Assembly (NCBI GenBank): GCA_905250005.1 | Contig: CAJNOH010000088.1 | Span: 1 to 62,152 of the forward strand | Direction of reading: 5' to 3' | From: Rotaria sordida | Taxonomy: Eukaryota | Length of the DNA stretch: 62,152 nt | Shown here: positions 1,034 to 57,146 of the stretch, piece by piece | Numbering within the stretch: position 1 is the first letter of the stretch | How the letters are laid out: each line of letters opens with the position of its first letter | Position numbers and translations under genes: made by a program | Notes under the pieces: generated by a model | Told to the model about the DNA's origin: nothing | Seen by the model: only the letters and a program-made list of their open reading frames with translations | Database searches by the model: none

Positions 1034-4000
1034 TGATTACTATATTATATTGAAATAAGAATTTAAATATAAAAATAAAATGAATATATGTATACCTGAT
1101 GATTTCAAGAAAGATATTGATGTATATGAAAAGTTTAGATAATCGAATGCTAAAAGAGACTGCGAATGATGATGGAAAAAGCAAAAGGAAGACTTCGATA
1201 GAAGTGTTGCTCGGCTTTTTTTTTTTATTCTCCGTAACTAATGGACTCTGAATTTTCTTTCTTTCTTTTGCATTTCTCTCTTCTTTGTTCGACGGTTTTT
1301 TTATCATTTGTCTCTCCGATCACGTATTTTGAAAAGGATCTTCCTGGCTTTTCTACTTAGTGAATAGCAAACACATATCTTTGCTTCTATATATTTACTT
1401 ATTATTTGATTTTGCTTCATCAATCACTATAATTCATTATTCAATTATACTAATGTGTTTAAATCATTTTCCTTTCAACACGAATATTGATTTCTAATCT
1501 GCTAAAGCTAATACAATTAGTTTTTGTTCAAAATATATTTTTTTTGTTTTGATCAATTTCCTGTTTGATAATATTAATCATATATTGATCGTGCATGGAA
1601 ACATATATATATAACGGTATGCATAACACGTACGTTTCATATATGATCTCTATGAATTTATTATTGACTATTATTAAAATAAGCTAATAAGACCGAAAAA
1701 TAAAATAAGAAGGTAAAGGAAGAGAAAATCGAGAACTGAAGAGCATTAACTATTTGACATCAAACGATATTTAAAAAATCGGGTAACTTTCTTTTCCGAT
1801 CTTGTCAATAAAAAGAAAACACATGAAAGAACCTATTGACATACTATCTTAACGTTCATTTTAATACATTAGAATATTCAAAAAAACAAAAGGAAAATAC
1901 AGAAGTACTTTATATTATTAAGTAGATCATTGATATTCTTTTTTTTTCTCATCTCTTTGAAATACGTTTGTCGGAATGTATCGATCTATAGATTTAATTA
2001 TATTCAATAGTTATTTTTAGTTCGAAACAATTGCACTTTTTGGAAATGAACCGAACCAATATATAATCTGTATTCAAAAAGTTAGTCATCAAATAGATAA
2101 GCGTATTACTGAAGATAAGAATTGATTTTATTTATAACAATTTAGATACAAGCTAAAAGCTTTTTTTTTATAACACTCATTTAAGAAGACAATATAAACA
2201 AAAAAAAGACATTTGATCAAGAGTTTAACGGAAACGAATTACGTCGAATTAGTACTTGCCAAAAAATCTTGAAGAAGATTTTATCAGTTCAAGACATCAA
2301 CAATAAGGATTTCAATATAAATGTAATTCTAATACATGTTGATGAATAAGCTAAAGATTCGAACTGAAATTTAATTAATTATTCTTTTAATTTATTTTTA
2401 TTTTTAGTAAATAAATAAATAAAGTTCAAAATAATTAATTACTTAATTCAACTTCTCTTCCTATGTCATATCTTTTTTTTTCTATTTATAACCATGACAT
2501 TATACCCATAAGTGACAAAATATAATATTATTTTCTCATTTGACTTCTTTTTGCATAAGATGAAAATTTTGTCAGTAAGATATTAGTTCTATTAGTTTTT
2601 TAACTAAGAAATCTTTCATTTGATTTATAAAATTTAATAAATATTTAAATACATTATGTGAGTCAAATAGTTCATAAATATGTATTGATAAAAGTCAATA
2701 GCTTATTATAAATAGATTAAAAATTATTTTCAAAGTTTATTCAATAGAATTTCTAATCGATCGTTTGTCTCATTATTATCAATTACTTTCAATATTTCTA
2801 ATAAATGCCATTTTGCTTTATTAACAATTGATGTCTATTATGTTTTTTTATTCTACTATTGTATATCATTCTTCAAGTACAAAAAAAAACCTATTGACTA
2901 ACTACTAAAAATATCATTAGTAATGATCTATTTGAATGTACATCGAAAATTCGAATTAATTCTATTGTTTTTAAATAGTTTTAATAAAAGATTAGAAAAT
3001 GTCTCATTCCATTCAATTTTTGTTATAGGATTAAATAATAAACACGATCTCTTCCTCTCTCTTTGTTTGTTGATGACTAATAGTCGTTATTAGGTTGTGT
3101 ATCTCATGACATTGTTCCTAATGATCACAATTACTTAAACAAATTTGATATAGATTAGATTTTCGTTTAGCTTTTTTTTAATAAAATCTTATAGTTGGTA
3201 TACACAAATTAACTGACCATTCCATACGTTTTATGTTCAAAATAGAGATGAAATCGATACTGGTTGCAGGCCAGTCGTTACCGGTGTGTCTTATTAATTT
3301 TTTTGCTATTAAGATCTCATAGAGGATGTGTAAATGAAACTTTATTGAAAGTTGACTATGTCAAATATCATTATACACAGATGGAATTGTAAGATAACTC
3401 GTCAGAACAGTGTCGGTATGCATTTTAGACAGATCAGTCAGTCCAGTTTGGCCTACTTAAAACAGTACCGATCATGAAAAATCCAGACCAGTTTCATTTC
3501 TAGTTCAATACAGAGTTCTTCATATTCTGTCAGCTCTAAATGATATATTCAAATGTTTTACAGCAACGGTTTAAAATATACGAACTGAAATCATTATGCA
3601 AAATTCGATTTACTGTTGATAGAATACAGAGCACGCATTTGAAAAGGAATATTTTATTATTGAATTTGTATAGTTGTTTCATGATTATCAAAATGATTTG
3701 TGAATGAAAAAAACGTAGAATAAATTTAAGGAAGATATCAAGCATTTATTTTATTCTTCATCATCGTTTTGAATCTTTCAATGAAATAATACTAGAATCA
3801 ATGCTTTAGCAGCCAATTGATTTATTATTTTATTTTGTTCCGACAAACATCAATATTGTTAAAACAACATTTGCTCTCATGACATTGAGGGAGGTGAGGG
3901 TGAAGCAAAGGAGAATGTGAGGTTTACAACTATATTTATAATCTAATTTCAGTATACTTCGCATTGGTATTTAATGGCTACCAGTTCTCATACAATACTG

Positions 4001-13792: not shown

Positions 13793-16582
13793 AAAGAGAG
13801 GAAGAAGAGTAGATCCGCTCCGGAATAATTCGAAGAGGAAGACATCCAGAATCGATAATTGACATCATGAGACAGAAGGGAGAGAGGAAAAGGGATGCTT
13901 GACAAGAGGAGATGCGCGCTCTCGCACACTTGATAGAATCGATGAACGCCAATGACGATGAGTAAGAGAGCCTAGTTCAAGAGAGAAAGAAAACGAGAAG
14001 TCAGTTTCTTTTCTTATTCTACTACTACAACCCATATTCAACATAAATACATCTATTGATTATGCAAAAAGACAATTTCATTTAGGATTCACTTACTTCC
14101 TACTAATCTACTAACTTTGCATTAAATTTAGTTCGAAACCTTTCGATCTATGACTACTAGAAGTTCTCTCTTTTTTTTCTCTTCTCAAGTTATCGTACTT
14201 ACTCACTCGTTTGTATGCATTTTGCAAAAAAAAAAAAGATCAAATGCCGGAAAAATTAGTAGAGGAAGTGCTATGAAAATCAAAGCGAGGCTAATTTAGG
14301 CCGAAACCCTCTTTATTTTCTTTATATAACTAACTTCTGTTATGTGTATGTTTCATTCTTCTTCTTATTCTTCTTTTTTTTTCTCGCTAACAACAACAAC
14401 ACTTTCCGATTGACTTTTGTTCACAATACACAACAGATACAATTGATTCCATTCAAACATCATAAAAATAAAAGAAAAGAGTGTGTACCGTTTTTTTTCT
14501 CTTCTCTTTTTTTTAATCACTAGACCTAAGTTAAAAAATTTTCTAGGCTAATGATGGCAACAGAAAGAGAGAGAGAGAGAGCAGAGTGCCACTAATTCGA
14601 TTATCTCGAATTCCAGTCTTCGTTCGTCTGCAAATTAACATGTTTGATTTTTAACGATTAAGCAACATTCTCATAATTTGTGTATGCATATACAAGACAG
14701 AATAAGCGAGATCAAAGCAAGAAAGACCGAAGTCAATGATGATGATGAGGATGAGGATGGCGATCGGCGATCAAGTACTTGGCATAAATAATTCTCACTC
14801 ACTCACACTCACTTATTCTTAAACTGATTCAAAAAAAAAAAAAATCTGTTCTACATCAATAATAGATACAGCGTTAAAAGGCCTACTAACAACATCATAT
14901 TGTAAGCATATGCATATGCACACACGCAACATACAAAAAAAAAAAAAGAAAAAAAAGTCAAACTTAAATACTCATAAGAGGTAGTTGACGTCGCTACTAT
15001 TGTTTGATGTCTTTATCTATTGATAGTATTACTCTATAAATTGAATGAAAACGATTAAATTGAAAAAAGTAATCATAGTCTATCGGAAAAACTTCTTAAT
15101 CGTTTTCTCTTTTATCTTTACCTAAAGTATTGATTCCATTTTGTTCTTGTTTCTTTTATATATATTCCAAACTGAAAAGAATAAAAAAAAAAAAAGAATT
15201 TTATGTAATCAAAAAGAATTATATCGCAAATACATATGATAATAAATGTTCATGTCTAAAGTCTAATGGAATATATTTAATAAGATACTAACAAATTCAG
15301 ATACAATAATATAGCAAATATTGCTTGTATTCTTAGAATTTTATCCATTATTATCGTCTCTATCATTATTTATGTATTTTAACTTCGGCCTAGAAAATAG
15401 ACTGAGCATTTTTTTTATGCACGTACTTAATTAATTCTGTAGATTCGAAATAATAATAAAACAATCAGATTCAAAGATACAAAAACATTTATTTTTTCAT
15501 ATGAATCAAGTTTTAGAATATTCATTATCATCAAATATATTAATATTTAAAAATATTCTAGCTTCTAAACAATGCCTTACTTACCTATTTTGATTATTGA
15601 ATAGAGTTTAATGAACTTTTTTTTTTGCCTTATTCACAAAATATCTAATCATTAATAATAATAGAAAAAAAAAAAAAAACTTTTTCTCCTAAGCAATTTT
15701 CCAGCAATTATGAAACCCTTTAGCACATTATAATTATTTTCAGTTATTTTATATCATGTGTTGCCAACATAGAATTCTTTATTGAATAATTAATGAGAAA
15801 TTATTTAAATGATTAAGAAAAAAAAAATGTTTTATGACGTCTCATGTATATTATTCATTTCCTATCAAACATATAGATATGAATTATCGTTTATAATAGA
15901 ATCATATAACTCTTATAGAAAAAAAAAAAACTATTATTTATATTTTATAATAATTGTCTGCATTAAATAAATTAAATTGTTTTGAAATAATATTGTTATC
16001 TAATAAAAATAAAAGTTTTGTTGTACTTACTAAAAGTTCAAACAGATCATCAAACTTATTTGAAGTCGATGTAGATGTTCATTTTCGAGTTTGTCACAGG
16101 TCAGGCAGAACGCCTACCTATCATGTTCTTTTTTTTTCTAAATTTTCAATAAAAAAATTTCCTTTATTTTTTCAGAAGAAAATGCAAGTATCAAAATCTA
16201 TAGGAAAATATCTTTGCTATTAGAAGTTGAGAAAAGATGCTTTAATTAATTTTGACTCGACATAAACATAAATAATAATAGATCGTCACTAACTTATTTC
16301 CTTCTTTTTCTATTTCATCAAAATACTGTTCTCGCAGTCGAATCTGGAGATGTACAGTGTTGATATAAATACTGACAGTGAGTCACCAACACAGGATTCA
16401 CTCGGATACGAATTACACTGACACCTGCATTCGTTATAATCTTGAGACATCAACTCTATCAAAATATATCCTTTTTTGTAGCGGTGTATTCCCAGTGTTT
16501 CGATGAACACTGCTGCCAGTGTGTTAGTGTGCACTAACTATTGATATTTGATTAAACTATCTAATTTTTAATAAGTCTATTT

Positions 16583-16985
16583 TTTGGGTTCCAGATTTTC
16601 GGAAAACTCTTTTTTTTTCGAATTTTGATTTAAAACTTTGCACATATAGAGAACTCAACTAGACTAACTTCCATGAAAAAAGAACTCACAAGTTTTGAAC
16701 AAAGTTTCATTACACATCTTCTAGAAGAAAATAGGAGCAAAAAAATTAATAACATACATCAGTAACGACCAGTCTAAAATCCATACCAGTATCAGTTCCA
16801 TCTCTGGTATACACGATCCATGGAAAAGGGTCTATATCCTGTAATTCTCATATTTTGGAGAGACTTTGTTCAAAACTTTTTAGTTTTTTAATGAAACCTA
16901 GCTAGTTATGTTCTCTATATGTGCAAATTTTCAGATCAAAATTCAAAAAATCAAATTTCTCGACAACTTGGGACTCAGAAAATAA
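16583..16985. mobile_element. foldback element (arms of about 130-140 bp). It belongs to the family whose core is shared with the elements at 26169 and 53689.
   Basis: Left arm: ...gaattttgatttaaaactttgcacatatagagaactcaactagactaacttccatgaaaaaagaactcacaagttttgaacaaagtttc. Right arm: ...actttgttcaaaactttttagttttttaatgaaacctagctagttatgttctctatatgtgcaaattttcagatcaaaattc. The right arm is the reverse complement of the left. The core (gaattttgat..aaactttg..ctagactag..aaaa..gttttgaacaaag) recurs at 26340..26440 and 53870..53960. Confidence 0.65.
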
Positions 16986-19900
16986 ACATAAAAAATTTGC
17001 TGACTTAGTCAAATCTTCATGGGAACCCAAATCCTTCTAAGATTCTGTATAATATCTATAGACAAAAAAAAAAATCATTGAAATCGGAAAAGGCAGCTGA
17101 AGAAATTCCTTGATAAGTTGATGACGAGTAAACTGAAAATGTATATCCCTATTCTAATCGATGATTATTCTTATGTTACATGAATCATTGAATAGATTCT
17201 TATTATTCTCTTATTCATATTTATATTGTTGTAATATAGTAGGTTTTAATATTTCATCTTCAACTCAAATTCATTCAGAATGTTCTTATGAAAAAACAGA
17301 TTTGTTTTTCTAAATGTTCATGTTTCTTTTATTTATACGATGTATAAAATCAATAAATGTTTCGTATTGTCATATCATTTTGGTATACATAAGTTCGTTA
17401 CTTTCTTATAATGATACTCTTCTGCATTTTTTTCAATTATCATAATAATAATATGTAAAGAAAAATACACAGGTAGATCAGATCAAGAAAATAAGATGAA
17501 AGACAGATATTTTAAGGATTGTCTTAGCCTATCACAAATGAGTCAAATCTACAAAAAGTAGATCTGCCTCAGCCTTTACTACTTACCAAAAAATAATTTT
17601 GTAAATAAACAATTGCAACAGCTAATTTTTTCTTGTTTTTATCAAAATATCATTTGTCAAAAATAAAAAATATTTTATATATAATCTCGGATTTATCTAT
17701 TCGTTATCATATGGATGAAAAATATTGAATTCGAATGATGTATCGTATGCATTGATTTATATAAAAAGAAAAGTTTAATTATTAATCGATTTATTAATTT
17801 GTATGCCATGATTGAGATCAAACGATATATCTTTTTTACAATCTAAATAACTTATCCAATAGTTCTAAACATCTGCAAATGAATGAAGACAATATTGACA
17901 TCCACTAAATCTCAACATCAGTTATATCAATAGTTTAAACACGACATTTGATTGAAACACAAAAACAAAAAGGTTTTAGAATAGTTCCTATTGACTATAA
18001 TGTGAAACACAATGAAGCAATTTCCTAGAAAAAATTGTAATTAAAACAAAATAATTAAACTCTTACAGAAGTTTAACAGAGTTAAAAACATCCTTTCACC
18101 AGGTTTGTAAGTCAAAAAATAAAAAAAAAGAAAATTCTTCTCTCTTTTTTAAGGTATTCAAGTCATGATTTCTATTCAGGTTAGAAGAACATGATGAAAT
18201 TGTCACGTTAGAATTAATTTAAGCTTAAATTCTTGTTTCTTATTCTTTGTCTGAAACAAAAAGGAAATAATTGACGAGACTTGAAATGAGGCGTAAATTT
18301 TTCTTTGATCTTCGAAAATTAATTAGTTTCTATATTCAAATCATAATAATCAATAATAGTATACTTGAAATTAATGAAAAAATTCCTATTGACAATAAAT
18401 CTCAGACGAATATTTATTATCAACAAAATAAATAAATAAAAAACCTTTAAATTAAATGTTTTTAGGCTATTCAGCTATAAATATCATACATTTCTCATTG
18501 AATAATCACGCGTTCTATCATCATTTTATACATTTAGAAAGTTTAGTTGTTTATATGTTACTTCATCTATCCATCCTTTTTTTTCTTCATTGTATACGTA
18601 GAAATACAGAAGTTCATTGTGATTCAAATCATGAATTATCCATAAAATGACTACTGAGAAATGGAAACAAGACGGTTTTTTCCTCTATCGGCAAAAATAG
18701 AATTAACGGCTATTGTAAATTGCAGTAAGTATTTAAATTACAAAATAATATTGAAAAGTTTTAGATAAAATTTCAAAAATATGTTAGAACAAACTCATTG
18801 ATCAATATTCTGTGTCTTCTTGATTGTGGAGATTTTTTCTTAATTGAAAGCAAAAAAATGTATGCAAGATAAAATCAGAAGGAGAGACAAAAATGGCTGC
18901 ATTATAGAAATATGCAGAAATAGATATAGTAAGAGTATCAGTGTAAGTAGTTCGATTGAAGAGTGAATATTAGAATGTGAGTCTTCTACTCAGTCACATC
19001 CTAAACTCAAAAATTTTAGATACTCTTATATACTTCATTAATGATTTTAACTGTATTTCTTTTTTTCTCCTTGCAATTCTTCTTTGCGGACATTTTTTCT
19101 TCATCGACTAAAAAAGGTGTCTGCAGTCTGGATGTAGACCAACATCCGTATATGCAATAGTTTCGTAAAGAAACGCGTGATAAGAAATATAAAATCTTCT
19201 AGAAACAAAATGTCATATCCTATTGAGAATATCGCATAAGTGTAATAAAAATCAAAACTCTCATAGTCTGAAAAAACAATTGTTTATAATCTCTACATTA
19301 CGAATATTCTCTATGGTATCTTTCAGTGTATCTCAAGTGACAAAAATGAAAGCTATTTTTTAAACTTACATATATACATTTTGCACAGAGGTGTCTCAAG
19401 TGGGGAGAAGGCTCAGGAAGTGATCTCAATCTTAAAAAGTTTTCGTTTTTATCTAGTGGAGTTCCGGTACTTTTGCTTACCGAGTTCCAAAACACCGCTT
19501 TTAACTCCTAAAAATCAGTTCAACTTTAGAAAAAAATCTTCTAATCATAGCAATTATCATGATAGAAAAATCTTACCAAGATCATATAAGATGTTATTGA
19601 CTATCGAATGTCATAAGATTCATCCTGTATGATCTTTCAAAATTGTACAAATATCATATTGTAAGATTTAATATTTATCTGACTATAAGATGCTAAGTAA
19701 ATTTTATATGTCACCTGTATAAACAATGTTGTGCATTTAAGTAAATATTTAAATGATTAAATACATTCTGATTGAGACGATAATTTTTGTAGAATTGAAG
19801 ACACATCTTCTATGTAGTGATACTGATCTGTTAAAAAAATTATTCTACAGATAATTTAATCGATTCGATTAGATAGAAGTAGATTTTCTCTGGTTTATGC

Positions 19901-24452: not shown

Positions 24453-25070
24453 AAAAAGAAAACTAATTGTATTATTGTTTAAACTTTATTATATTTTCAT
24501 CATTTCGATTTGTTCATATTGAATAAATTCGTTTTGATGTGTATTGTATTATTAATCATCGTTTGTTTGTATAACATTTAAATAATACGCTTAGTTTGTT
24601 TTTTTTTGTATGATTGTGTATCTAGAAAACACATTAAGAAAAAAAAAACGTATGAAATATTATCTGAATATTCTGTTTTTGTCGTTAATGTTTCTGTATT
24701 GTATTTGTTCAATCTCGTCTTTTTTTGTTTTGTCTATAACTTGTGTTCATATGTGTGTAATTGTTGGTGTGCTTCTTTTTCGTTTTTTTTTCGTTGTCTA
24801 ACGTATATTTGAAAATAAAAATATAGACATTTTTTCAAATTACAGTAGTAGATTATTGGTATTTTTTTTTGTGCTTATTTGAGAATTTGATGAAAGTTTG
24901 ATAGAGCTTATACACTGGTAAATGAAAACGTTTGTAATAAAAGAAGAGAAACAGGCATAGACAATATATTATGATCATAGTATATTATAGTTCGATAAAA
25001 TTCAACTCTTCAGTTTTGCTTAATATTGAACGAATAACGTCAGCGTGACGACTAAAATGAACTCTGGTAA

Positions 25071-25700
25071 GGCGCTTCAGGACTATTATAGAAATTTTAA
25101 AAAAAGGCTATCGGACAAAATGCTTATAACTTTTGAACGAAGATAGCTAGAGCCTTGCAGTTTTTCATCATTCGAAAGGGGAGAAAAGGGGACGCCTTTT
25201 TCTCCAATATTGTATAGGACAAAATCATTTAAAAATCAGTCATTTCTACAAAACATGAAAAAAATGCATGAAAACGATCTGTCATTCCAATGATATTTTG
25301 GTTCTGACATTTGATCTAAATAGAGGAACCTCAGATGTATAGTTCAAGATATAATTCGAATGATTATCTATCCACCTCCTAATGTTGAACAAATAAACTT
25401 GTCTATTCAATCGTACGAAAACTATAGAGTTCTTTTAATTTTTAAGCATATTTTCTTACTTTTCGTCAAAGTTTCATCTGAATGGCAGACCGTTTTTTAT
25501 GCATTTTTTCGATGTTTTGTAGAAGTAACTGATTTTTAAATGATTTTGTCCTATACAATATTGGAGAAAGAGACGTCCCCTTGTCTCCCCTTTCGAATGA
25601 TGAAAACTGCAGGGCTCTAGCTGTCTTCGTTCAAAAGTTATAAGCATTTTTCCCGATAGCCTTTTTTTAAAATTCCGGTAATAGTTCGAGAAGAAAACAT
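25071..25700. mobile_element. foldback/MITE-like element (arms of about 200 bp, loop of about 225 bp)
   Basis: 25071..25270 (ggcgcttcaggactattatagaaattttaaaaaaaggctatcgg...aaaaatgcat) is mirrored by 25495..25700 (atgcattttttcgatg...cccgatagcctttttttaaaattccggtaatagt). The pairing is seen directly. Confidence 0.75.
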
Positions 25701-26168
25701 CAGATTTCGAGACTTTATGGGACTAACATATTTTAAAAGCTATTAGCGCAACGCCTGAGGGATTGAAATGCAAAACACGATGTAGCTGCTGCTGCTAATC
25801 AAAGCGAAATTGTTTTATTTTATCTATTTTGTGACATATTTCTTAACCATTATTCCACTTAATTCTTCAAAAATGCAATGAGGAAGTAGTTCATATATTA
25901 AAACGAGCTATTATTTATAAACAGTCTGTGATCTGCGGTTCCTCGTATGTCTGTAATGACTTGTTGCTAAGATTTCTATCAAATCTGTGAGGGATTTCTC
26001 ATTCTACCCTATACTTCAACACTCGTTTTTGGTTATGTTTTACAAAAGCTATGGTTTACAGTATTCATAAGACTTCAAGACTGAAGTCTTTGTTATTTTC
26101 ATTCGGACTAGTCATTCGAAGCGTGTTTCACAGTGGGTATGGGTGTGTGGATGTGGCATAGTAGACAG

Positions 26169-26705
26169 CAAAAGGGGATCGAGAGCAATTTACAGTTGTC
26201 AAATCGCTTTTGAATCGAGACTATGCGCGTTATGTAGGCCCTAATGAGCTATGAACATCCTGAAAAAAGTTCATGCTTATAGCTTATTTCTGTCAAGATA
26301 TTTAACTGTTATGGCATTTTTTAGGAAAAAGCTGTGGTCTTCCTCAGGTTCACCCGAAAAATCAATTTTCGAATTTCTACTTGAAACTTTGGCCAGAGAA
26401 AGGTCTCAGTTAGACTAGTTTATTCTGAAAGTTTTGGATTTTTGAGTTCCTCCTATCGCGAGATACGAGTATAAGGAAAAAATATTCTTTTTCATATCAC
26501 TTATAGCACCAAATGTTAAATGTTTATATTTAAGGATAGGAGCAACGAAGAAATTTGAAACTTTCAGGATTAACTAGTCTCATTGAGACTTTTCGTTGCA
26601 TAAAGTTTCAAGTCGAAATTTGAAAGTTGATTTTTCAGATGGGTCTGAGAAGGAACACGGTGTTGTGCTACAAAATGTCAAATATCTCGACAAAGATTCA
26701 ATGGC
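26169..26705. mobile_element. asymmetric foldback element of the same family as 53689..54311 (left arm about 310 bp, truncated right arm about 160 bp)
   Basis: The left arm, cgcttttgaatcgagactatgcgcgttatgtaggccc...gaaactttggccagagaaaggtctcagttagactagtttattctgaaagttttgga, aligns with the 53.7-kb arm, cgcttttgagtcggaactttgcgcatcttgtaggcc...gaaactttgtccacataaacagctcagctagactagtttgcataaaaaatttcagaacttttgga. The reverse complement of 26545..26700 aligns to 26230..26460. Confidence 0.7.
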
Positions 26706-26794
26706 GCATCCACGAAGATAGATGATGATATGCTCTGCAAAATAACAAACTAAAATTTGAATTAAAATTCCGGAAAAATCCTGGAAACGAACTG

Positions 26795-26960
26795 CATCAC
26801 TGGCTAGTAGCTATTTTCACTATACTGGATGTGGGTGTGTAGGTGTGTGAATATCAGTCTTAGCTCAGTCTGCATTCATTTACATCCACACCACCCGCCC
26901 ACGACCACATCCACATCCATACCCACACCCACATCCGTTCGATCTCTACAGGAACAAGCT
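26795..26960. repeat. G/T-rich then C/A-rich hairpin block built from degenerate TGTGGG-type (telomere-like) hexamers. It is homologous to 33217..33420.
   Basis: It contains ggatgtgggtgtgtaggtgtgtg, followed by catccacaccacccgcccacgaccacatccacatccatacccacacccacatcc. A shorter related tract, gggtatgggtgtgtggatgtgg, sits at 26136..26157 on the other side of the foldback. Order and sequence align with 33217..33420 (ctagtgatgctggtccagctgtgagtgtgggtgtg...gcacattcacc...cacacccac...). Confidence 0.6.
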
Positions 26961-38482: not shown

Positions 38483-41400
38483 TTAAACATGTCGCCATGT
38501 AAGCACTGTAGTATTATCCATATTTGTAATTGCAGTTTTTTTCCCTACATCTCTTCCTTCATTATATATGATAACTCCAAAAATAACAATAAATGTTCCT
38601 GCACCGCTCAAAAATGTCACCGGATTATGAAATATAATAATTGATATCCATATTAACAATGCTCGTTTAATAGTATTTGCAACACTAATTAAAAAAGCAA
38701 ATTAATTATAAGCACAAAAAAAAAAATAAGTAAATTATGTATCTTTTTTTTTCTTACCTATGTGTTATTGGCGATATATAAGCCATAATAGCAAAAGCAG
38801 CTACTGATTGTATATGATAAACAAATCCATTGAAGATATATAAAAAAACTAATGTTTTAGAAGTTAATTTTAATGCTAATGGAATATTAACATAATAAAC
38901 AAGTAAAGGTAATTGAAAAATACATGCTAGAAGACTTGCCCAGAATTGTAATTCAGTAGCTGAATAACGATAATGTTCACCACTAATTAATATTTTTGAA
39001 TAAACGTTTTGTAAACTAAAATAAAAACATTCTATTAACACAATGATTGTGAAATAAAAAATATGAAACATAAATGAATTTCTATCATTAATAAAACGAA
39101 ATATTTAACAAATCGATTAAAGCCAATACTGTATATAGATCAATCGCTTTTAAATTCAGACTCTATGGATAATCTCAGGTCGAAATACTGTCATTCGATT
39201 TATTGGTATATACCATACAAGAGGCTAAAATTCTAGTAAAATGCCTATAACTCTGGACAGATGGCTTAATGAGGGACTTTATCCTTTTGAGATTTTTTAT
39301 ATCTTACTGGAATCTATCTTAGACACCGAGTCCAAGTTCTAAAGCGATTAACTAGTTGAAAATGCTCAATCAATATTATTCGAGAGCTTTTCTTAGTTTA
39401 CCTATAAACTTATGGTTTTCTCTTTTCGTAGTTTAGAAAAATAAACAATTAAACTTCATTCTCAAGACATTGTTTGTTACTATTAGAGATGTATGGGATC
39501 ACGGGAAAGGAAATTTTCCAATATTGAGACTTCGAGAAAAAAGTGGTCTCAATCAGAATTGAAGATTATAGTTAAATATTCTACGATTTTAGAGTATCCG
39601 CTCTTCCTTTTGTGACCCAATATTGTTTTATTGTTTGTTTGTGACCATTGCACTATCTATTGAGTACAGTTTAATATCCAAAAATTATCTCTAAGCGTTA
39701 AAAAAATTCGAGAAATTAGCGAAAATTAAACATTATTACGCATTGTTCTCAAATTGACTTTTTCTTGAAAAGAAAAGTGTATAAACATCTCCATTTCTCC
39801 AGTCTAGTACATCTGATCAAGCTGAAACTTTTGTCATATATACTAGACACTGTTTGGGATGGGTATCTTTTTTTCGTTTAAAAAAAATATTGTTCTGGTG
39901 ATTTTTAATAGTTCTTACAAAAATAAGCTCTATGTAAAGAAACATGCGTTTTTTAGGGTTGGGATTTTTTTATTTGAAAAACAAAAAGGATACATACTCC
40001 AAAGAATGTGTAGTGTCTGGAAAAATATTTTCAGCTTGATCGAACATAGTATATCGGAGAAACGGAAGCGAAAAGTGGAACCATTGCAATTTTAGTATCT
40101 CATAGAAGACAACATCTGGGAATTGTGAGTTTAAGACAACTTTTGCTCTACTCGTCAAGATCTATCTGCTCGAAGAGTTTCAAATTTTTCTGAATATGAT
40201 TGAAGCGAAATGAGCCGAAACAGTACTAGTTATCTACTAACGATTGAATCCGTCTGTCCTATAACCTTCGTTTTGAGCTCATATTTTGCTCAAAGATAGA
40301 ACTCATAGTATAGATAAAAATCTTGAAAGAATTCGTGTCATTAGGCTTTTTTCTCGAATTATGGCCGTTTTACTGAACTTTCAGCCTATTACAAGATATC
40401 ACGAGAAAAATCGTAACAAGGAGTTTCGATCTAAAATTCTCCCCAACAATAGCTCTTATGGTATCCTGAAAGTTTCAGCTCAAAGGAATGATTTTTTCTT
40501 AAGATATCGTATACCTAAAAACTGGACTATTTTTGAAGCTATTTTGTGCAAGTAACGTTTTTTTTTTTTATAAATGTGTTATCTCAGAAGGAAAACATCC
40601 GCTTGAGCTGATACTTTCAGAATATCATAAGAATCATAAGAGCTTTTGCTAAGAAGAATATCCAGTAGAAACTTCTTGTTGTGATTTTTCTCTTGATATC
40701 CTACAATAGACTGAAAGTTCCGTAAAATAGCCATAACTCGAAAAAAAGGGCCTAATAGCACGAATTCTTTAAGAATTTTTATCTGCATTATGAATCCTAC
40801 CTATGGACTCAAGCGGAGATTATCAGTCGGACGGGTTCCCTTATAAATAGAAAAAAAAACGAGTATGGAAAAGTTTTTTCTAGAGCGGGATCCGATTGGA
40901 TTTGCCGAGAACATAACTAGGACCAATAACACTTGATTCCATATATCTCTAGTCTAGACATCGGCGTGACCAATATTTTTTGGTCAAGGTTACGGTCACG
41001 GTAGTCACACCAGTCTCTATCGGAACGGCTATTTTCTATTTCTCAAAATAGCATATCCTTCTGCGCCAATAGAAGATCCCCACTGGAGAAAATATGTGCG
41101 AGATCTAAGGGAACCCCCTCAGAAAATCCAAGTTTTCGCAGACAAATCGAAGTCGAGATCTTATCATAGAAAGATGTACCGAAGTCTCCTCTTTCAGAAT
41201 ATCTATGACTTATCGCAAAATGAATTGATTTAACAGACTTATCGTCTAAAACTTGGCTTCTACTATCATATTTTTCGAGAAATTTTTACGGTTTTTTTAG
41301 ACTGCTTTCTCTTTGAATCAGCATTTCGCAAAGTTCTTTTTTTTATATTAATCACTATGAAACTCTTAACACTTAAGATTAAGATTACATATTTATAGCC

Positions 41401-43745
41401 TGTCCTGAATACTGATATATAATTCATGTGTGTTTCGCAAAAATCGATTTCTAAAACTTATTTAGTCTTTTTCTCAAAATCAGTTTTTTGTCGAGCATAC
41501 CGTTTACGCGGGCATGGGTTTTTTTCATAATGACTCAATAGGGAAGTGATCATTTTTTTATTGCATAGAAGACAGTTAGGGCTAGATCCTCACAGAGCCC
41601 GATTTTTGAATTTCTCTATTGGTAAAATAAAAAACCTACGTATTTCATTTTTATCAGCGAGTTTTTTGACCATGAATTCGAGAATTTTTCAGAAAAGATT
41701 TTTTAAAGAACAAACAAAGGAAATTTCAAAAATTGGGCTCTGTGAGAATCTAACTCCAAGGGTATTCTGCAACTTAAAAGCCGCGCCGACATGTTAACTC
41801 GTATCCTGACTGCGAAAATCTTGCCTGTGTACAGGATATTTTTGTCTAATAAATTGACTATAACTCGTTAGTCTATTGAAGATTTGAGGGGAATATTTCA
41901 TCCATAATCTATCCTAGTCTAGACTAATATGCTTCGAAAATTTGATTGAAATCGGACGAAAAATAACAAAGTTGGTTTCTGAGGGGGCTCCTTAATATAA
42001 GACCTCATTCAATTGATTAATTTTTCGAAAAATGACAACTTCATTTACTGAGTTTACACCGTAATATGCTTAGTTTTCAGAATTTTGAGCTAAAAACCTT
42101 AACTGAGTGTTTTCAACATTTTATTTGGACTTTCAAAATCCTAGAAATTCCTTCTCAAAGCCTCAAAATCGCTTTGCCTTTCTGAAGAACCTTTTTAGTT
42201 AAAAACTGTAAAAACAAAAGAGACACAATAGAAGATCCTCTAAAAAACTTTTGCGGTTGGACACAATAGAAAACATTGGGTCTTCTCGTGTAGAAGAGCG
42301 AGAGGTAATATAACAGATAAACGAGCAAGATTAGGTATGAAAAAAATTGATCGATTTATATTTTTGAGAAAAAGTCTTAAAGTTCTTGAAATTTTATTTG
42401 ACCAAAGTCTGCATAGAAATGAGCGAAATCAGAACAAATAGAAAAATGATCAATCATCAAGTAGGTCATCTGATACAAGTTAAAAGAGTCAACAATATAT
42501 GAAAATGACATTATTTTTGTTCAAGAAGACGATAATATTTTTTAATGGTACATTTTTTTCTAAAGTATTTCTATGCAAATTGTTTAAAGTATATTAATAT
42601 TGGGTATATTTTTTCTGGTATTGTGATTGCATTGATTCTATTTCTTCGTTTTGAGTTATCTCAATTAGAAAAGGATATTGATACATATTAAAAGAATACT
42701 AAATATAATATTTAATTCTCTGACGAAGTTTGAAAATAGTTGTCATAGAGCTATACTGAAAATATATGGTGACTGGCCGTGACCAGGTTTTGATCACGGT
42801 CACGACCTTTTTTCAAAAAAAGGTCACGATCGTGATTCACGGCGATCACGTCGATGTCTACTCCAGTCACAATCTATAATAAATTACGTCTGCAGTGTCT
42901 ATTACAATTTATGAGAGAAAGATCTCATAATCTGGCCTTATATTTCAACATTTCTTGTTTTTAATTTATATTTCATAAAATTCAAAAATAAAATCTTACC
43001 AATCAAATATATTTGTGCCTAATGCACATAAAAATCCAAATAAATTAAAACTTAATTCAAATGAACTACATAAACAAAGACCAAGTGTTATTGGTACCAT
43101 TGAAAATTTTGTCCAATTACCTAAAATAAAAAATATTTTACATTTTATATTTAATAAATATTGAAACAAAAAAAGTATTCTTTACTTGTTTTTTCTCCAA
43201 GTATAATTCGACTTATAATAACAGTAAATAATGGTGAAGATGATTTGATTGTTGCTACAAATGATACAGCTATATATTTCAATGCAACTAAACCTAACAT
43301 AACAGTCACAGAACGAAATGCACCAATAAACATCATATCACGAAATATATTTTTCATAATAATTGGATTTTTATCTAATTGATTATGAAATTTATTTATA
43401 AATTGTATTTGAATATAACCACTTATTACAGATATAACAAGTTGATTTGCACCTTTATTCAAAAATAAACAAATAAACAAATAAAAGAAATTTTAATTAA
43501 AAGAAAAAAAAATAATATTTTTATTTTTCTATTTCAATACCTAATGAAAAAGCATCACCATCTAAATGACTTAATATATATTTATTTGAAAATATTGTTG
43601 CAGCTGATGAAATATACCAAACAATAAGTAATATTATTGCCATTGAATGATATAAACCACGTGGAACTTCAAGTACAAATCGTTCTGGTGAAAGTAAAAC
43701 ATTTGCTCGATTTGGGACAACTTCAGATAAACTTGTTAATGACAT
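38483..43745 (-). CDS. SLC35E-like nucleotide-sugar/triose-phosphate-translocator-family transporter (5 exons). It includes one anomalous 3984-bp intron.
   Basis: Minus-strand exons are 43745..43541, 43452..43186, 43120..43000, 39015..38758 and 38684..38483, and the phases close. The translation is MSL..MAIILLIVWYISSAATIFSNKYILSHLDGDAFSL|GANQLVISVISGYIQ...FRSVTVMLGLVALKYIAVSFVATIKSSSPLFTVIISRIILGEKT|SNWTKFSMVPITLGLCLCSSFELSFNLFGFLCALGTNIFD|CLQNVYSKILISGEHYRYSATELQFW...|SVANTIKRALLIWISIIIFHNPVTFLSGAGTFIVIFGVIIYNE. It aligns with vertebrate SLC35E1 across the whole length (KATMPIWVVLLSRIIMKEKQ, SLQNIFSKKVL and ANATKRIMVI equivalents are present). Introns 1, 2 and 4 are 60-90 bp. Intron 3 (42999..39016) is about 4 kb. 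Confidence 0.8.
40325..40790. mobile_element. foldback element (arms of about 190-210 bp) lying inside the large SLC35E intron
   Basis: The reverse complement of 40578..40790 aligns at about 85% to 40325..40510 (gaattcgtgtcattaggcttttttctcgaattatggccgttttactgaactttcagcctattacaagatatcacgagaaaaatcgtaacaaggagtttcg...). Track ORFs 40286..40555 on the plus strand and 40579..40788 on the minus strand encode near-mirror peptides. That is an artefact of the two arms. Confidence 0.75.
40937..42872. mobile_element. about 1.9-kb candidate non-autonomous DNA transposon with imperfect terminal inverted repeats, inside the SLC35E intron
   Basis: The left end reads ctagtctagacatcggcgtgaccaatattttttggtcaaggttacggtcacgg. 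The right end, 42781..42872, reads gaccaggttttgatcacggtcacgaccttttttcaaaaaaaggtcacgatcgtgattcacggcgatcacgtcgatgtctactccagtcac. Its reverse complement begins gtgactggagtagacatcgacgtgatcgcc.. and so mirrors tagacatcggcgtgacc. Each end also carries small GTGACC...GGTCAC sub-palindromes. There is no internal ORF. Confidence 0.45.
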
Positions 43746-50976: not shown

Positions 50977-53688
50977 TTTTGTCATTTTAGATAAAATGTG
51001 CTGTATTAAAGTGGTACTTATTTCTTTCCTTCGAAGATGAAGTAAATAGCTAATTTTTTTCTATCTTCAATCTTATGTAAAAGTCCATTCATTTATATTC
51101 AACAATCGTACTGTAACAGCGTTATACACATGTTTCAAAGTAATCTTACTCGAAATTCTCATTCTTGAGTGCGAGTTTCACTGCACTTATAGTCGAGAAA
51201 GTTTATACTTGCTCAACTCTATATTGATTACAATAAAATAAGATTCTAAGTATTCTGAAATAAATGTACAAACTATCTTTATTTCTGATTCAATATATAC
51301 ATGAAATCTATTCTGCATGTTTTCACTCATATCTTAGCTTCAATTTTTGTTACATATATAATTTTGTATGTGCGATGTTATCTTTCTGTGTAATAATATG
51401 TAATAAAAAAAGAAACGTCGATATAAAAACATTAAGAAAATTAGATACTATTAGTTTTTGAGTATAATTCACCGTTTTAAATGAGAAAAATGATATTCTA
51501 TATTTTATCTGATTTTATTTTATTTTACGTCAAAAATTAGAGATCTTATTAGGTTGCATGCGTATAATGTCCTTAGAAAAGAGCCAGGCTAGTCGTAAGA
51601 CACTATGTACGTGTTCAAGGAACGCTTACCATTCATCTGAAAACTCAAGATAACAAAACATGAAGAATAACTAGCATTATTAACAGTTCATTAAAGATTT
51701 CTAGGGATTCTAGGAGATAGTGAGTAGAAAAAAAATTTAATTGGAAGTAAATATATGTAGTACTTTTTCTTGAGTATTTCTTTCATATCAACAATAGCTG
51801 ATGGAGATTGATTAGTCTTATTAGTATACTATATTGACGAAAGAACTTTTTTTTTTAACTGATATCTTTGCATTTGATGTCATAGTTTGCTAAGGATTCA
51901 AATCAAACAAAAAAAAAAATTGTTGATAATATACAATTATTTTCATTATATAAAAAAAAAGATTATATCATTCGAGATATTCTATCCTAAATGTCGCTCG
52001 AGAAATTGTAATTTACCAGAAATTATCATAATGTCAACAAAATCAAATTATCAATCTCGAAATATCTATAAAAGATGAATTTGCAAAGAATTTTCTTGTG
52101 TGATTCGAAACATTTCTTATTTAAAATACAGTAAGAATATAGTAAATATCAATAATGAATAATAAATTTGTACATGTCTTTCTGAAATCAAACAACAAAA
52201 GAAATAATTTCCTTGAGAAAAATTTTTTTATGAAGGTAAAACATGATTGTTTTGAGTTTGATTGGGTTGACTTGAGTCTGGATCGAATGGAAAAATATCT
52301 TTTGATTGTTTTGAGCCCGGAGACGGCAATGAGTTCAAATCAATTAAGAAAAAATATATCTTATGCAGACAAGTAAAACTTAATTAAAAAGGTATATGAT
52401 ATTTGTCTCACCTATACATCTCATATTCTATGACAGTGCTCTCATATTTTTGTAGGTGAGGGGCGGATGTCTTCTTTCTAGTGCCATTGACTTTGACATG
52501 CCTATGTTCATCCATTCTCAAGACAAAAAATTACTTGTTCAATTTAATCAAATTTGAAAGCTGTAGTGAGATAGTGTGTCTTAATTGAATTCGACTCATT
52601 TCTGCCTTCGAGCTTAGTAAAAAGGTCCTTGTTCAAATGATTTCATCACTATGAGTTTATTTTTCAGTCATACATGTATCTTTGTTCTATTATTACTACT
52701 AGGTTATTTTTGTATATGAAATGAGCATAACCTTGTTTTCGAGGAGTTTTGATGTATATAGTATAAAATGAATTCATTTGAATATTGTATCCAATGCAAA
52801 ATTTGATCATGAAATTCTTCCACGAATTAATCATATTTAAATAAAATTATAGAAGTTATTGTGATTTATAATTTTTTTTTTTTTGAGATCGCTTTTATAC
52901 ACATTTGAATGATTTCTTTTTCTTTTGTTTACTTTTTTCTTCTTTATTAAAAAAAAGACATTCATTCCTCATTATGAGATCTATTCCTTTTTAGATTTTC
53001 GTATTTATCGCTATTTAGTTTATCATACGGCTTTATTATATGTATTTCTATTTACTTATGTCCGTGCATTGAAAATCGTCAAAGAATATTAAAAATGATG
53101 ATGAAAATTGAAATAAAGTAAGAATAAAGCTAATCTAAAGACTCTTATTTAATGATTCAGAACATTGTTGTCGAAGAAAATTCATCTTTTGACTTCCAAA
53201 ACATAAGAATCTTATTTGTAGATCAGGTTTACTCTTTATCGACAAGTTTATACTATAGGAATAGCTCTTTCGAAAAACAATTAAGGAAAATTTTCCATAT
53301 TTACTCCTGTTTCTTTTCTTCGAATAACCTTATTAATAAAATTCATAGGAATTCAATCATTCTAATTAAATCACGTATCGTAGAGGAAGAGTCATTCAAA
53401 AAAAGATATCTATCACGTAGTTTGTCAAGACGTTGTAATGCATGTTAGATCTCATTAAATATATTTATTATGCTTGAAAAGAAAAAATGAACGTAAAGAA
53501 CCTTTTAGAACATGTTACGTTTTTTTGTATCGATGAAAAATATAACTTTTAAATTTATAATTATATGTCAGAATACATAAAGTAATATTGAAATATGTAA
53601 CTCAATTATTTATTTTATCATTATATTGAAGGAATTAAAGTTAATTGATTATAAGTCACATACTATCTTTTTATAATTAAACTAACTC

Positions 53689-54311
53689 ACAAGGGAACAT
53701 TCCCAGGTGCCCGATCGCTTTTGAGTCGGAACTTTGCGCATCTTGTAGGCCTTGATGAATTATGTCTACCATAGAAAAAGTTCGCGCCCCTAGCTTGTTC
53801 CTAGTGAGATATCGAGGTTTTAATGAATTTTCTCTATAAGACGCCACATTTGCAACAAGGTCATATTTTTGAATTTTGATCTGAAACTTTGTCCACATAA
53901 ACAGCTCAGCTAGACTAGTTTGCATAAAAAATTTCAGAACTTTTGGACAAAGTCTCTCCGAGATATGAAGCTTTCAAAAAATGTATGCTTTATACGCTAT
54001 CTATGGAAAACGACCTATACGTTGAAAGCTTCATATCTCGGAGAGACTTTATCCAAAAGTTCTGAAATTTTTTATGCAAACTAGTCTAACTGAGGTGTTT
54101 ATGTAGACAAAATTTCAGATCAAAATTCAAAAATATGACCTTGCTGCAAACGTGGGATCTTATAGAGAAAATTCATTAAAACCTCGATATCTCACTAGGA
54201 ACAAGCTAGGAGCGCGAACTTTTTTTATGGTAGATATAATTCATCAAGGCCTACAAGATGCGCAAAGTCCCGACTCAAAAGCGATCGGGCACCTGGGAAT
54301 GTTCCCTTGTC
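53689..54311. mobile_element. near-perfect long palindrome or foldback element (arms of about 290 bp, loop of about 40 bp). It belongs to the same family as the elements at 16583 and 26169.
   Basis: The left arm is cacaagggaacattcccaggtgcccgatcgcttttgagtcggaactttgcgcatcttgtaggcc...ctccgagatatgaagctttcaa. The right arm is ttgaaagcttcatatctcggag...ggcctacaagatgcgcaaagtcccgactcaaaagcgatcgggcacctgggaatgttcccttgt. Track ORF 53677..53925 is an arm artefact. Confidence 0.85.
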
Positions 54312-56526
54312 AGTTGATTTAGAGGAAAAAAAAAGAAACTTTGAACATGTTTTATCTTCTCTATCTATAAGTATAGTAATTATAAATATATAGAAAAAAC
54401 TAAAAACATTATTCTATATATTATAGAATGTAAAAAAAACACAAAAACCAAAGATCTATGGAATACTTTTAAAAAGTCTTTTTTGTACGATATAATTTTG
54501 AATCTATTTTTTCTTAGTTTTCTATTTTAATTACAGCTGTGATGTAATCATTATTGTCAATCTTCATAAATAGGTTATCGTGTTTGATTAAAGTGCCGTG
54601 CATGACGATTATTTATTTCAGTAGAACTTTTTGACACTAAAAGTATTTCAAAAGAACTTTTATTTATAGCCTATTATTGCAAAATATAAATAGATAATTG
54701 AGTAGATTTACTTTAAAAATACAGATGATGTCGAACTAAAATTTCATTTAGGGTAATCCGATTAAGTTTTATATTTCATTATGAATATTGATCCTTTGTT
54801 GTTTCTTTTTCTTAGTATTTATAATTGAAAAGAGCTATGCACAGAAATACTGTATTCATAATTATTTATGTCTTAATAACCTTGTGTTTCATTGTATTAG
54901 AATAGAAAACGTCCTTAGTAACCTGTTCGAGGTATTTAATGTAGCAAAAGAAGTTGTTTCTTATTAATTGCTTACATAGAGTAAATTAAAATTAAGTGAT
55001 TGATAAATTTTCCATATGTCTTTTGATTAAATTTATTATATTAAATAATTAACATTTATGTTCGATAGACTCTCATTTATTTATGTTAAATTTAACAGCA
55101 ACTTTAATACTATACATAATTGTCAAATACTTGAATGCAAGACTTAGCAGGTGATTGAATAATAGAACGAGAAAAATAACAAGACATTTCATTTTCTTTA
55201 TTAATTAATAATAACAGTAAAGACAAAAGTTTATACGAGCTGGCGCATCAATAAAAATCCGCCATGTCAATTAATGCTATGAGTGGTAAACACCTTTTTT
55301 TTTTATAGTTAAAAATATCGTTAATGATGTTCTTCTTGTTTTTTTTCATGCGATACAAATTATGGATAATTCATAAATAGACAATGCACTTATTACTATC
55401 CGTTATGTAATGTAAAAAAATTAGTTTTTTGACGTATATATATCGCATCTATAATTCGACAAAAATAAGAAAATTGGTGTATGTAAATTTGATATGTCAA
55501 AATATATCTAATTAAGATATATCTTTTAAAATTATATATTACTTTCTAATTTCTCTTTAAACTAAAATATTCATTTAAATCAACATGAATATATCCACTT
55601 TTATTATTTAGTTTTTGATATGTTATTATCTTGTATTGAGGTGATCTAAAGTTTACTTTCGTTTAATTATGTAGTAGGAAGATACTTATTTCTATAACCT
55701 ACTAATACTAAAGCATGTATACAACAAAATAAAATTGATACTCCTTGATATTCAAAAATCATTAGAGATTTTTTTGAACTAGAATGTCGTCGAGATATGT
55801 TGGCTAGTCAAATGCATAGAAAGATAAAAGCCGATGTTGATTGTCAATAAGAGCCTTGTTTTTCTTTTTATTATAATATCCAGAATATAATTAATTCTTA
55901 TGGGTCTTATATCTGCTTTTTGTTTAGAAATTAAATGAGAACATAATGACAGATTTGTCTTTGAGTTTATGTTTAACATTATAATGATTTATGCCATAAT
56001 TGCCAAATGAATATTTTTGTTTTCATATTTAATGACATCAAATATTACAAAAGAAAGATTCTATTTGCATATATTTTCTTTTCTGAATAATATCTATATT
56101 TGATTGGAAAGCATGATATAACACATTTGTGTACTCGGAACATGAATAGAACATTGTAATGTATCATTTTTCTTTATATTAAAGAAATCTTATTCCTATA
56201 TGTGAAAGTTAACACTGTATTTTTTTTTTGTATCCTTTAAAGATGGTTAATCTCGATGTTCCTATCAATTGACATATGTTACTTAATAATGTATCTAAGC
56301 TTACTTTTGCTTCTTATTATTTTTAAGTTATCAAATTGTACTTGAAGATTTCTTATACTATATAATATTTTTATTATAATGAAGATCAGATGTTTTTCAT
56401 ATGATTTAACAATAATATAATGATACTTGATTATATATTTTATACAAACTCATTTTCTTATATTTACATAAACAGATACGATATATATATATATTAAGAA
56501 TATTTATAAAAACATGCTTTAGATAT

Positions 56527-56741: not shown

Positions 56742-57146
56742 TATTATATAGAAATAAACTTAAGAAGGGTGAAAAGAATAAACGTATGAAAACGTGACAT
56801 TGATAAAGACTTAGTCACGTAATATTTTTCTGTTTGTTTCTCAAATAGTCAAACGTACTTGTATAAGAATAGTATATAAGCATATGTGTTATTATTTTTC
56901 TTCAATAGCAAAATGTTTAAACATATATAAGTAAAAGAGATATTTTTCTTCTTTTGTCTTGCTCATTCTTCAACGTTTTATCATCCTTTGGAATTTGATT
57001 CCAAATGTAAGTACGAATATATATAGTTTTTTATTTCGATTTAACCACTGTTTGACTGAAACAAAAAAAAGCTGTCAAAAGATCCGGTGATTAAAAATGT
57101 AACATTAACAAATATGAACTTGTTCTTTTAAGAGAAATTGTTGAAT

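Follow-up and report, generated by a model that had tools for sequence, protein, structure and literature searches.

The 62,152-nt stretch of Rotaria sordida DNA analysed here (contig CAJNOH010000088.1 of assembly GCA_905250005.1; hereafter, the window) carries several copies of one fold-back element. An intact copy comprises two reverse-complementary arms of ~290 nt and a loop of ~44 nt, measures about 620 bp and contains no gene. The copies very probably constitute a single mobile, non-autonomous family with the target site C|TNA|G. In its full form, the reading favoured here is that they are non-autonomous fold-back miniature inverted-repeat transposable elements (MITEs) of R. sordida and its relatives, moved by a transposase of the Tc4 clade; to this statement as a whole we assign a probability of roughly 0.6. 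The Tc4 assignment is made because three independent features agree: the target site with its duplication, the fold-back architecture and the terminal bases.

Family copies in the window are named e16, e26, e39, e40 and e53 after their positions near 16, 26, 39, 40 and 53 kb. An original prediction, made from the letters of the sequence, had described e16, e26 and e53 as related elements with a shared core. Inverted repeats are present at all three sites, and their arms are homologous by BLAST and multiple alignment (arm-profile nhmmer E = 1e-10 to 1e-98). A 37-nt degenerate pattern of the core, WRAAAHTTTR-N13-CTCARYKAGWCTAR, matches five arms, with none expected from 100 shuffles. The outer-arm motif cgcttttgaRtcg..., predicted to be common to the two larger elements, was located by alignment in e53 and in the left arm of e26. 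All three predicted copies are thus real, but two more had been missed (e39 at 39130-39371 and e40 at 40241-40843), and rescanning of the window with a broader profile, built from 56 arms, detected five to six family pieces.

The search for additional copies that had been proposed was also productive outside the window. Contigs of JGI metagenomes were scanned once with the core pattern, which gave 37 stretches; the arm profile was then applied and verified 35 of them as family members, most with two inverted arms and many of full length. The flanks of these loci differ between copies. A 558-bp ENA metagenome contig, reached with the 98-codon open frame of an e53 arm as a protein query (a single 98-residue open reading frame (ORF), 66% identity), is one more copy of the element. 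The metagenome copies are 70-88% identical to those of the window, and their contigs carry animal genes (arrestin, FG-GAP, Fringe and LDL-receptor repeat, assigned by Pfam); because of this DNA identity and these genes, we infer that the contigs derive from bdelloid rotifers.

Complete copies are uniform in length. Eight of them, including e53 and the metagenome loci L014, L038 and L031, were tabulated for length, arm identity and duplication and measure 600-622 bp, and the arms align over about 300 nt across copies in the profile. The variable length originally proposed is therefore not a property of the family; the apparent differences in size result from decay and from a composite subfamily. 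Family-wide, an arm is 70-95% identical to its own partner, and its mean identity to other copies is 45-66%.

The target site was defined from the outer ends of 27 independent ends, which were aligned and have the terminus consensus CGAGGGAAC. The conserved sequence starts C(G/A)AGGGAAC, individual ends reading CGAGGGAAC or CAAGGGAAC. The flanking triplet is T-N-A, with T in 27 of 27 ends, A in 26 of 27 and a free middle base (C in nine, T in eight, G in six and A in four), and the base outside the triplet is C in 23/27 ends. From these flanking bases the target is C|TNA|G, of which TNA is duplicated. The middle bases of the two ends are complementary in arm orientation, so that the triplet is a direct duplication on one strand. 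The same triplet (TCA, TGA or TAA) stands on both sides of seven of the eight complete copies listed, as well as of e40 (TAA/TAA); with L014 and L038 counted as one insertion in two related genomes, the independent count is 7/8. The chance of seven matching duplications in eight is about 4e-4, assuming a random middle base, and the target-site duplications that had been suggested as a check are thus borne out. The hexamer ATCAAC adjoins the duplication in five of seven R. sordida ends, which gives the extended site ATCAAC|TNA|GTTGAT and may reflect an extended palindromic target preference. For e53, duplications of TA, TTAA or 8 bp were considered and dropped after many ends had been aligned. 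The end CTGACGAG was also considered as a hammerhead core and rejected, because its G is the free middle base (CTCAC, CTTAC and CTAAC also occur) and it has no Rfam match.

No open frame is conserved across copies, the longest frames differing in frame and strand (median of 59 codons), and the open frames of the arms have no Pfam match. Nothing in the whole window reaches the Rfam gathering score, no tRNA was found and the elements have no tRNA-like part; tandem sub-repeats were not detected in the arms by Tandem Repeats Finder (TRF). Because they possess no conserved frame, Pfam domain, Rfam match or tRNA-like part, the elements are classified as non-autonomous DNA transposons, in keeping with the MITE or fold-back family without coding capacity that had been predicted. 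The 98-codon frame of the e53 arm was rejected as a gene relic: it retrieved only one spurious ORF, in another copy, has no Pfam match and belongs to no conserved frame.

These features would be accounted for by the following mechanism. A transposase encoded elsewhere in the genome would recognise the two identical ends and excise the element, and reinsertion at CTNAG by staggered cuts would duplicate TNA. This transposase would most likely be a member of the Tc4 clade (pogo-like, 'TcMar-Tc4'). Once inserted, copies would decay, as e16, e39 and e40 appear to have done, or may ride inside other elements, as in e26; recombination between the arms would flip the loop and keep the arms more alike than independent decay would leave them.

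In the Tc4 clade of the Tc1/mariner-pogo elements, the interrupted palindrome CTNAG is recognised and only the central TNA is duplicated (PMC11071193 and preprint). Curated tardigrade Tc4 consensi start CGAGGGGATT, with TNA or TSA duplications (PMC11071193 supplementary tables), and their terminal inverted repeats (TIRs) either measure 134-160 bp or are entered as 'huge palindrome, TIR: whole' (PMC11071193). The terminus of the rotifer family, CGAGGGAACATTCCCA, compares with CGAGGGGATTTTTCCA, CGAGGGGATTATGCCT and CGAGGGGATTATGCTT in tardigrade Tc4 elements; the first six terminal bases agree fully, and the comparison with ramVar1-607 gives 12 matches among the first 16.

Several points weigh against this reading. 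The match of the terminal bases to Tc4 is to the tardigrade consensi, and a TNA duplication within a palindromic target flanked by C and G fits PIF/Harbinger elements too. In the metagenome loci, Pfam identified no transposase domain on the ten longest ORFs, which have host-type domains or none, and tblastn with three Tc4 catalytic domains (PMC11071193 supplementary alignment) returned 0 matches in ~350 kb of window, metagenome and related sequence, so that the autonomous partner with the same termini for which a search had been proposed did not appear there. The flanks of L031, a complete copy, do not match (TCA and TGA), and a clean duplication is absent at the left end of e16. The bdelloid source of the metagenome copies is likewise a deduction from their sequence and from the genes beside them. 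The solo-arm loci L035/L036, L039, L033 and L013 were considered as autonomous partners and discarded, as they proved to be truncated or interrupted copies with no transposase domain. In L039 (2613-3085), the fold-back copy is broken by a different palindromic MITE with the ends CCCATGTAAAAAA...TTTTTTACATGGG.

Apart from the tardigrades of the study that compiled them, only nematodes and arthropods have yielded Tc4 consensi, and an ecdysozoan origin has been suggested (PMC11071193). Our literature search found no paper that links the Tc4 clade to rotifers and no description of the present family; Nowell et al. applied a generic MITE finder (PMC7943196). We consider the odds about even that Tc4-clade transposons have been active in bdelloids (Spiralia) and have given rise to abundant and widespread 620-bp MITEs, that the clade is older than Ecdysozoa or was horizontally transferred, and that the arms are kept alike by recombination, through loop flipping and conversion.

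Mobilisation of the same fold-back MITE by a PIF/Harbinger transposase, in the manner of Tourist elements, is possible but unlikely. Harbinger elements have a 'classic TNA' duplication (PMC12477816). The triplet found here shows no preference for A/T at its middle base, which is C or G in 15 of 27 ends and A/T in 12. Harbinger duplications, in contrast, are mostly TAA/TTA. The target palindrome of maize PIF is CWCTTAGWG, in which C and G lie beside the duplicated TTA, and it resembles both C|TNA|G and ATCAAC|TNA|GTTGAT. The termini of PIF/Tourist elements usually start GG/GA; unlike these, the CGAGGGAAC termini match those of tardigrade Tc4 (CGAGGGGATT). Palindromy of the whole element is a hallmark of Tc4 and is also recorded in the tardigrade tables (PMC11071193). 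No PIF/Harbinger transposase (DDE_Tnp_4 with its Myb-like partner) was present among the Pfam-scanned ORFs of the metagenome loci.

Another superfamily with a 3-bp duplication, such as Zator, CACTA or Academ, is a very improbable source. The length of the duplication agrees, and it was for this reason that RepeatModeler first labelled the tardigrade Tc4 elements 'Zator' (PMC11071193). However, the duplication is specifically T-N-A within C...G, the termini are not CACTA-like, and the tardigrade elements with these termini were moved to Tc4 by transposase phylogeny (PMC11071193).

The features of the family in the window, with the repeats that adjoin e26, are as follows.

53690..54309: e53, intact fold-back of 620 bp (left arm 53690-53977, loop 53978-54021, right arm 54022-54309; termini CAAGGGAACATTCCC).
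53687..53689, + strand: left target-site duplication TCA of e53, preceded by C (aactaaC|TCA|).
54310..54312, + strand: right target-site duplication TCA of e53, followed by G (|TCA|Gttgat).
16458..17113: e16, an old and decayed copy of the full-length element (about 656 bp).
26129..26829, + strand: e26, 3'-truncated copy of a composite ('V-type') subfamily.
26830..26936: telomere-like repeats, adjoining the truncated composite e26.
26940..27062, - strand: solo right outer-arm fragment of the standard (e53-like) type, arm positions 2-134.
39130..39371: e39, internally deleted remnant with outer-arm sequence only.
40241..40843: e40, fourth full-length copy, 603 bp, of a divergent subfamily.

The copy e53 is the almost perfect hairpin that had been predicted. 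Its arms are 95% identical over 300 nt, or 95.4% over 285 nt, and enclose a loop of 44 nt; as single-stranded DNA, the element is predicted to fold into one long hairpin (-313 kcal/mol, z = -70). It matches the profile with E = 1e-96 to 1e-98, and its right end reads ...gggcacctgggaatgttcccttg|TCA|gttgat.

For e16, the interval 16583-16985, originally regarded as a whole element of ~400 bp, is only the best-preserved core. The inverted repeat, detected initially as 49- and 30-nt segments at 87-88% identity, spans 16546-17014, with well-kept parts at 16546-16708 and 16860-17014. Beyond it, the right arm aligns with the metagenome copy L039 up to 17103, a few bases short of the L039 terminus (E = 3e-30), and matches the broad profile at 17127-16815 (E = 2e-46); a match to the terminal profile at 17121-17092 is weak on its own. 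Because of this homology beyond the core, e16 is placed at about 16458-17113, a length of ~656 bp. Its right terminus, ...ggcagctgaagaaattccttga, is followed by TAA (17114-17116) and then gttgat, in parallel with the right end of e53. Erosion of the outer arm is severe on the left side, where the boundary, at about 16458, is uncertain by a few bases. Pairwise comparison of the outer part with e53 is not significant (z = 0.7), the boundary having been set through L039 and the broader profile. The centre of e16 is enlarged to about 150 nt. Part of it (16694-16805) is 74% identical by BLAST, in reverse orientation, to 3244-3350, and the centre probably belongs to a different repeat that was inserted into the loop or captured by it.

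The remnant e39 matches the broad profile at 39371-39227 (E = 2e-8), with atcgcttttaaattcag at its left edge and aaagcgatt at its right. In e40, arms that are about 74-79% alike enclose a 43-nt loop, the inverted repeat consists of three collinear segments, the broad profile matches with E = 1e-6 and 2.5e-5, and TAA flanks the element on both sides (40238-40240 and 40844-40846). A 29-nt fragment at 18755-18783 is 86-90% identical to the family core motif tttgaattttgatctgaaactttg and is either a tiny remnant or a chance match.

The copy e26 has a composite structure. Its inverted repeat was detected as 146-nt arms at 76% identity. The copy starts with the terminus CACAGTGGGTAT, followed by a 29-nt insert composed of TGTGGG-like repeats and a partial duplicate of the terminus. 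The embedded fold-back has its left arm at 26170-26496 and its right arm at 26505-26692, the latter cut at arm position about 122, and the last part is a conserved internal segment up to 26829. The region 26157-26829 is 81-85% identical to metagenome composites about 1.0-1.36 kb long (loci L025/L032 and L030), and also aligns with partial composite copies in L021/L019/L008, L016 and L042. These composites have the inverted ends CACAGTGGGCAGA ... GCTGTCCACTGTG, with the fold-back near the left end. In L025, L016, L042 and the window, the fold-back loses its right arm beyond arm position ~120; in L030 the cut lies at ~56. The truncated right arm noticed in e26 is therefore real but did not arise locally: since the same cut occurs in metagenome composites, it was inherited from the progenitor of the subfamily. 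Composite ends CACAGTGG...CCACTGTG can be defined in L025 (853-1879), L030 (183-1541) and the window (26129-26829), where the composite is itself cut at 26829. The heptamer at the composite ends is the same as that of V(D)J/Transib-type ends, and the flanks are mostly C-rich. The composite, about 1 kb long, carries a fold-back copy and is itself dispersed.

Telomere-like repeats follow the cut, with the G strand at 26830-26849 (TGTGGGTGTGTAGGTGTGTG), a spacer, and the C strand (CCACAT-like) at about 26886-26936; bdelloid telomeres have TGTGGG as their repeat (PMC7943196). A second telomere-like patch lies at 33261-33278 and 33332-33396, between two major vault protein (MVP) genes, and consists of TGTGGG-like units and an array of the 19-bp ACCTGACACACCCACCCAC. 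The solo right outer arm at 26940-27062 lies 258 bp beyond the right arm of the e26 fold-back (E = 1.5e-32 with the arm profile and 7e-10 with the terminal profile); its terminus reads ...ccctcg and is followed by TCA (27063-27065) and gttgatt. The position of a truncated composite beside a standard solo arm may be coincidental or may record a repair event between homologous copies.

The age of the copies was assessed from other Rotaria assemblies and from related bdelloids. The window is eukaryotic and AT-rich (GC about 0.28) and contains exons of the two MVP genes and a single-exon G-protein-coupled receptor (GPCR). Contigs of four other NCBI assemblies encode the same GPCR protein without a difference; two of these assemblies are listed as R. 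sordida individuals in Nowell et al. 2021 (PMC7943196), and the window is 98.4-98.7% identical to the contigs. Protein searches with the genes beside e16 and e26 returned only relatives at <=91% identity and no R. sordida gene models, and were used for synteny. Contigs of related bdelloids, obtained through MVP homologues, keep the gene order in three cases over 21 kb, against 48 kb in the window. A profile search of the related-bdelloid contigs L043-L046 found no family copies. Relative to L045, the closest syntenic contig (about 85% identical in MVP), the block 24871-28743, which holds e26, corresponds to 0 bp and the block 39023-42989, which holds e39 and e40, to 34 bp; because these blocks are absent from the syntenic contigs, the copies lie in lineage-specific intergenic DNA. 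Window positions 12443-60709 correspond to L043 6-20943, the locus being about twice as long in R. sordida, and the additional length is intergenic, with many palindromic repeats.

The recent insertion that had been proposed for e53 is not supported. All four other R. sordida assemblies, in which two haplotypes about 1.5% apart are represented, contain the element; as both haplotypes carry it, the insertion is neither very recent nor polymorphic. Nor does its arm identity of 95.4% call for special recency, since it is equalled or nearly equalled in L041 (95.4%), L040 (94.4%) and L014 (93.0%). In all four other assemblies, the interior of e53 is gapped, mis-joined or at a contig end (L001 4312, L002 4289-4396, and the starts of L003 and L004), and the L002 assembly turns back on itself ahead of the gap, as the reverse complement of e53's left flank.

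Direct evidence that the arms of family elements recombine, with some conversion, comes from the orthologous loci L014 and L038, whose flanks are 89% identical and which have the TGA duplication in common. Among their parsimony-informative sites, all six 'orthology' sites lie in the flank or the duplication, and the arms contain five 'concerted' sites against no sites of the orthology type. All 17 'cross' sites are located in the loop and the inner ~25 nt of the arms, which shows that the loop is inverted between L014 and L038. For six of eight copies, the arm most similar to a given arm is the other arm of the same copy. Together with the concerted sites, this lends indirect support to the active homogenisation of arms that had been offered as the alternative to recency. 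In the right arm of e53 (54022-54309, compared with L002 4398-4727), 17 of 307 sites differ between haplotypes, whereas divergence in the flanks is about 1.5%. Transitions predominate among the differences; the window copy has the derived state at eight sites, of which six are C-to-T changes. This excess could be real, from deamination or conversion, or a short-read assembly artefact of the palindrome.

The similarity of the arms would also be expected if the elements were host hairpin-RNA genes, with the hairpin kept for small RNAs that, for example, silence the family. From the predicted fold, a transcribed near-perfect hairpin of 290 bp would yield double-stranded RNA, the arms are more alike than expected, and the passages of PMC7943196 on RNA interference (RNAi) describe expanded bdelloid RNAi gene families. 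Such a role is nevertheless very unlikely to define the family: there is no Rfam match, most copies decay freely (e16, e39 and e40), position is not conserved between species and inverted-repeat recombination explains the similarity of the arms, so that hairpin RNA would be at most a side effect of some copies. Least probable of all, to the point of being negligible, is that the elements are unrelated, immobile local palindromes formed by inverted duplication or replication errors: palindromes of other families do occur in the window (25082-25685 and 57019-58311), but the present copies have ~300-nt arm sequence, termini, loop and length in common and occupy dozens of unrelated loci with matching 3-bp duplications, and both the further copies and the common CGAGGGAAC termini, whose absence the original prediction had associated with this alternative, were found.

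Of the two other palindromes, the first is an unrelated fold-back with 220-nt arms at 89.5% identity (25082-25300 and 25467-25685) in the R. sordida-specific block of e26; the CGAGGG/TNA signature is absent at its BLAST boundaries. The second (57019-57603 and 57711-58311) has ~600-nt arms at about 81%, lies upstream of the GPCR gene and is also found in other R. sordida assemblies. The MVP genes, at 29040-32370 (+) and 33785-37150 (-), are convergent, an arrangement kept in L043, L044 and L045. At its far end, the window stops within a tandem repeat with a 122-bp unit (61853-62152; 2.5 copies at 88%).

For annotation, the elements and the other palindromes form part of an approximately two-fold intergenic expansion at this locus in R. 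sordida. Short-read assemblies are broken by the elements: within e53, each of the four other assemblies has a gap or comes to an end. The phenomenon itself is ordinary, MITEs and fold-back elements being well known, and the link to Tc4, if true, would be of moderate specialist interest. A Tc4-clade partner would extend the range of a small clade beyond Ecdysozoa, and the family would also show, in a compact natural case, how fold-backs keep their symmetry. Bdelloids are famous for their lack of conventional sex, and the family provides a dated, countable set of DNA transposons for the debate on transposon activity without sex.

Among known systems, Tourist MITEs of the PIF/Harbinger superfamily resemble the family in being small and non-coding, with a 3-bp T-N-A duplication and a palindromic target preference. 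They differ in that their TIRs span tens of base pairs rather than the whole element, their duplication is usually TAA/TTA and their termini are different. Drosophila Foldback (FB) elements likewise have long inverted arms that make up nearly the whole element and that recombine. However, FB arms consist of tandem sub-repeats and the FB duplication is 9 bp, whereas the arms here have no tandem repeats according to TRF and the duplication is 3 bp; the family is thus not of the FB type. The part of PMC2861651 that cites Arkhipova and Meselson 2005 mentions the insertion of a Foldback-like DNA transposable element in bdelloid gene-rich contigs. By that description, it too is a fold-back-like DNA transposon seen as an insertion/deletion difference in gene-rich DNA, and it may or may not belong to the present family.

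Compared with the Tc4 clade (TcMar-Tc4, including Tc5 and the tardigrade elements), the family differs in host, a rotifer (Spiralia), and in being known here from non-coding copies alone. At 620 bp, its elements are much smaller than Tc4 (1.6 kb) and the tardigrade elements (2.4-2.5 kb), and sequence similarity ends after the first ~16 bases of the terminus. Tc4 of C. elegans was reportedly described by Yuan et al. in 1991 as a fold-back in which two arms of 774 bp enclose a loop of 57 bp, and Tc5 shares the Tc4 target and most of its terminal ten bases. The family has in common with this clade the CTNAG target, the duplication of TNA only, a fold-back or whole-element palindrome or very long TIRs, the terminal CGAGGG and the existence of non-autonomous forms.

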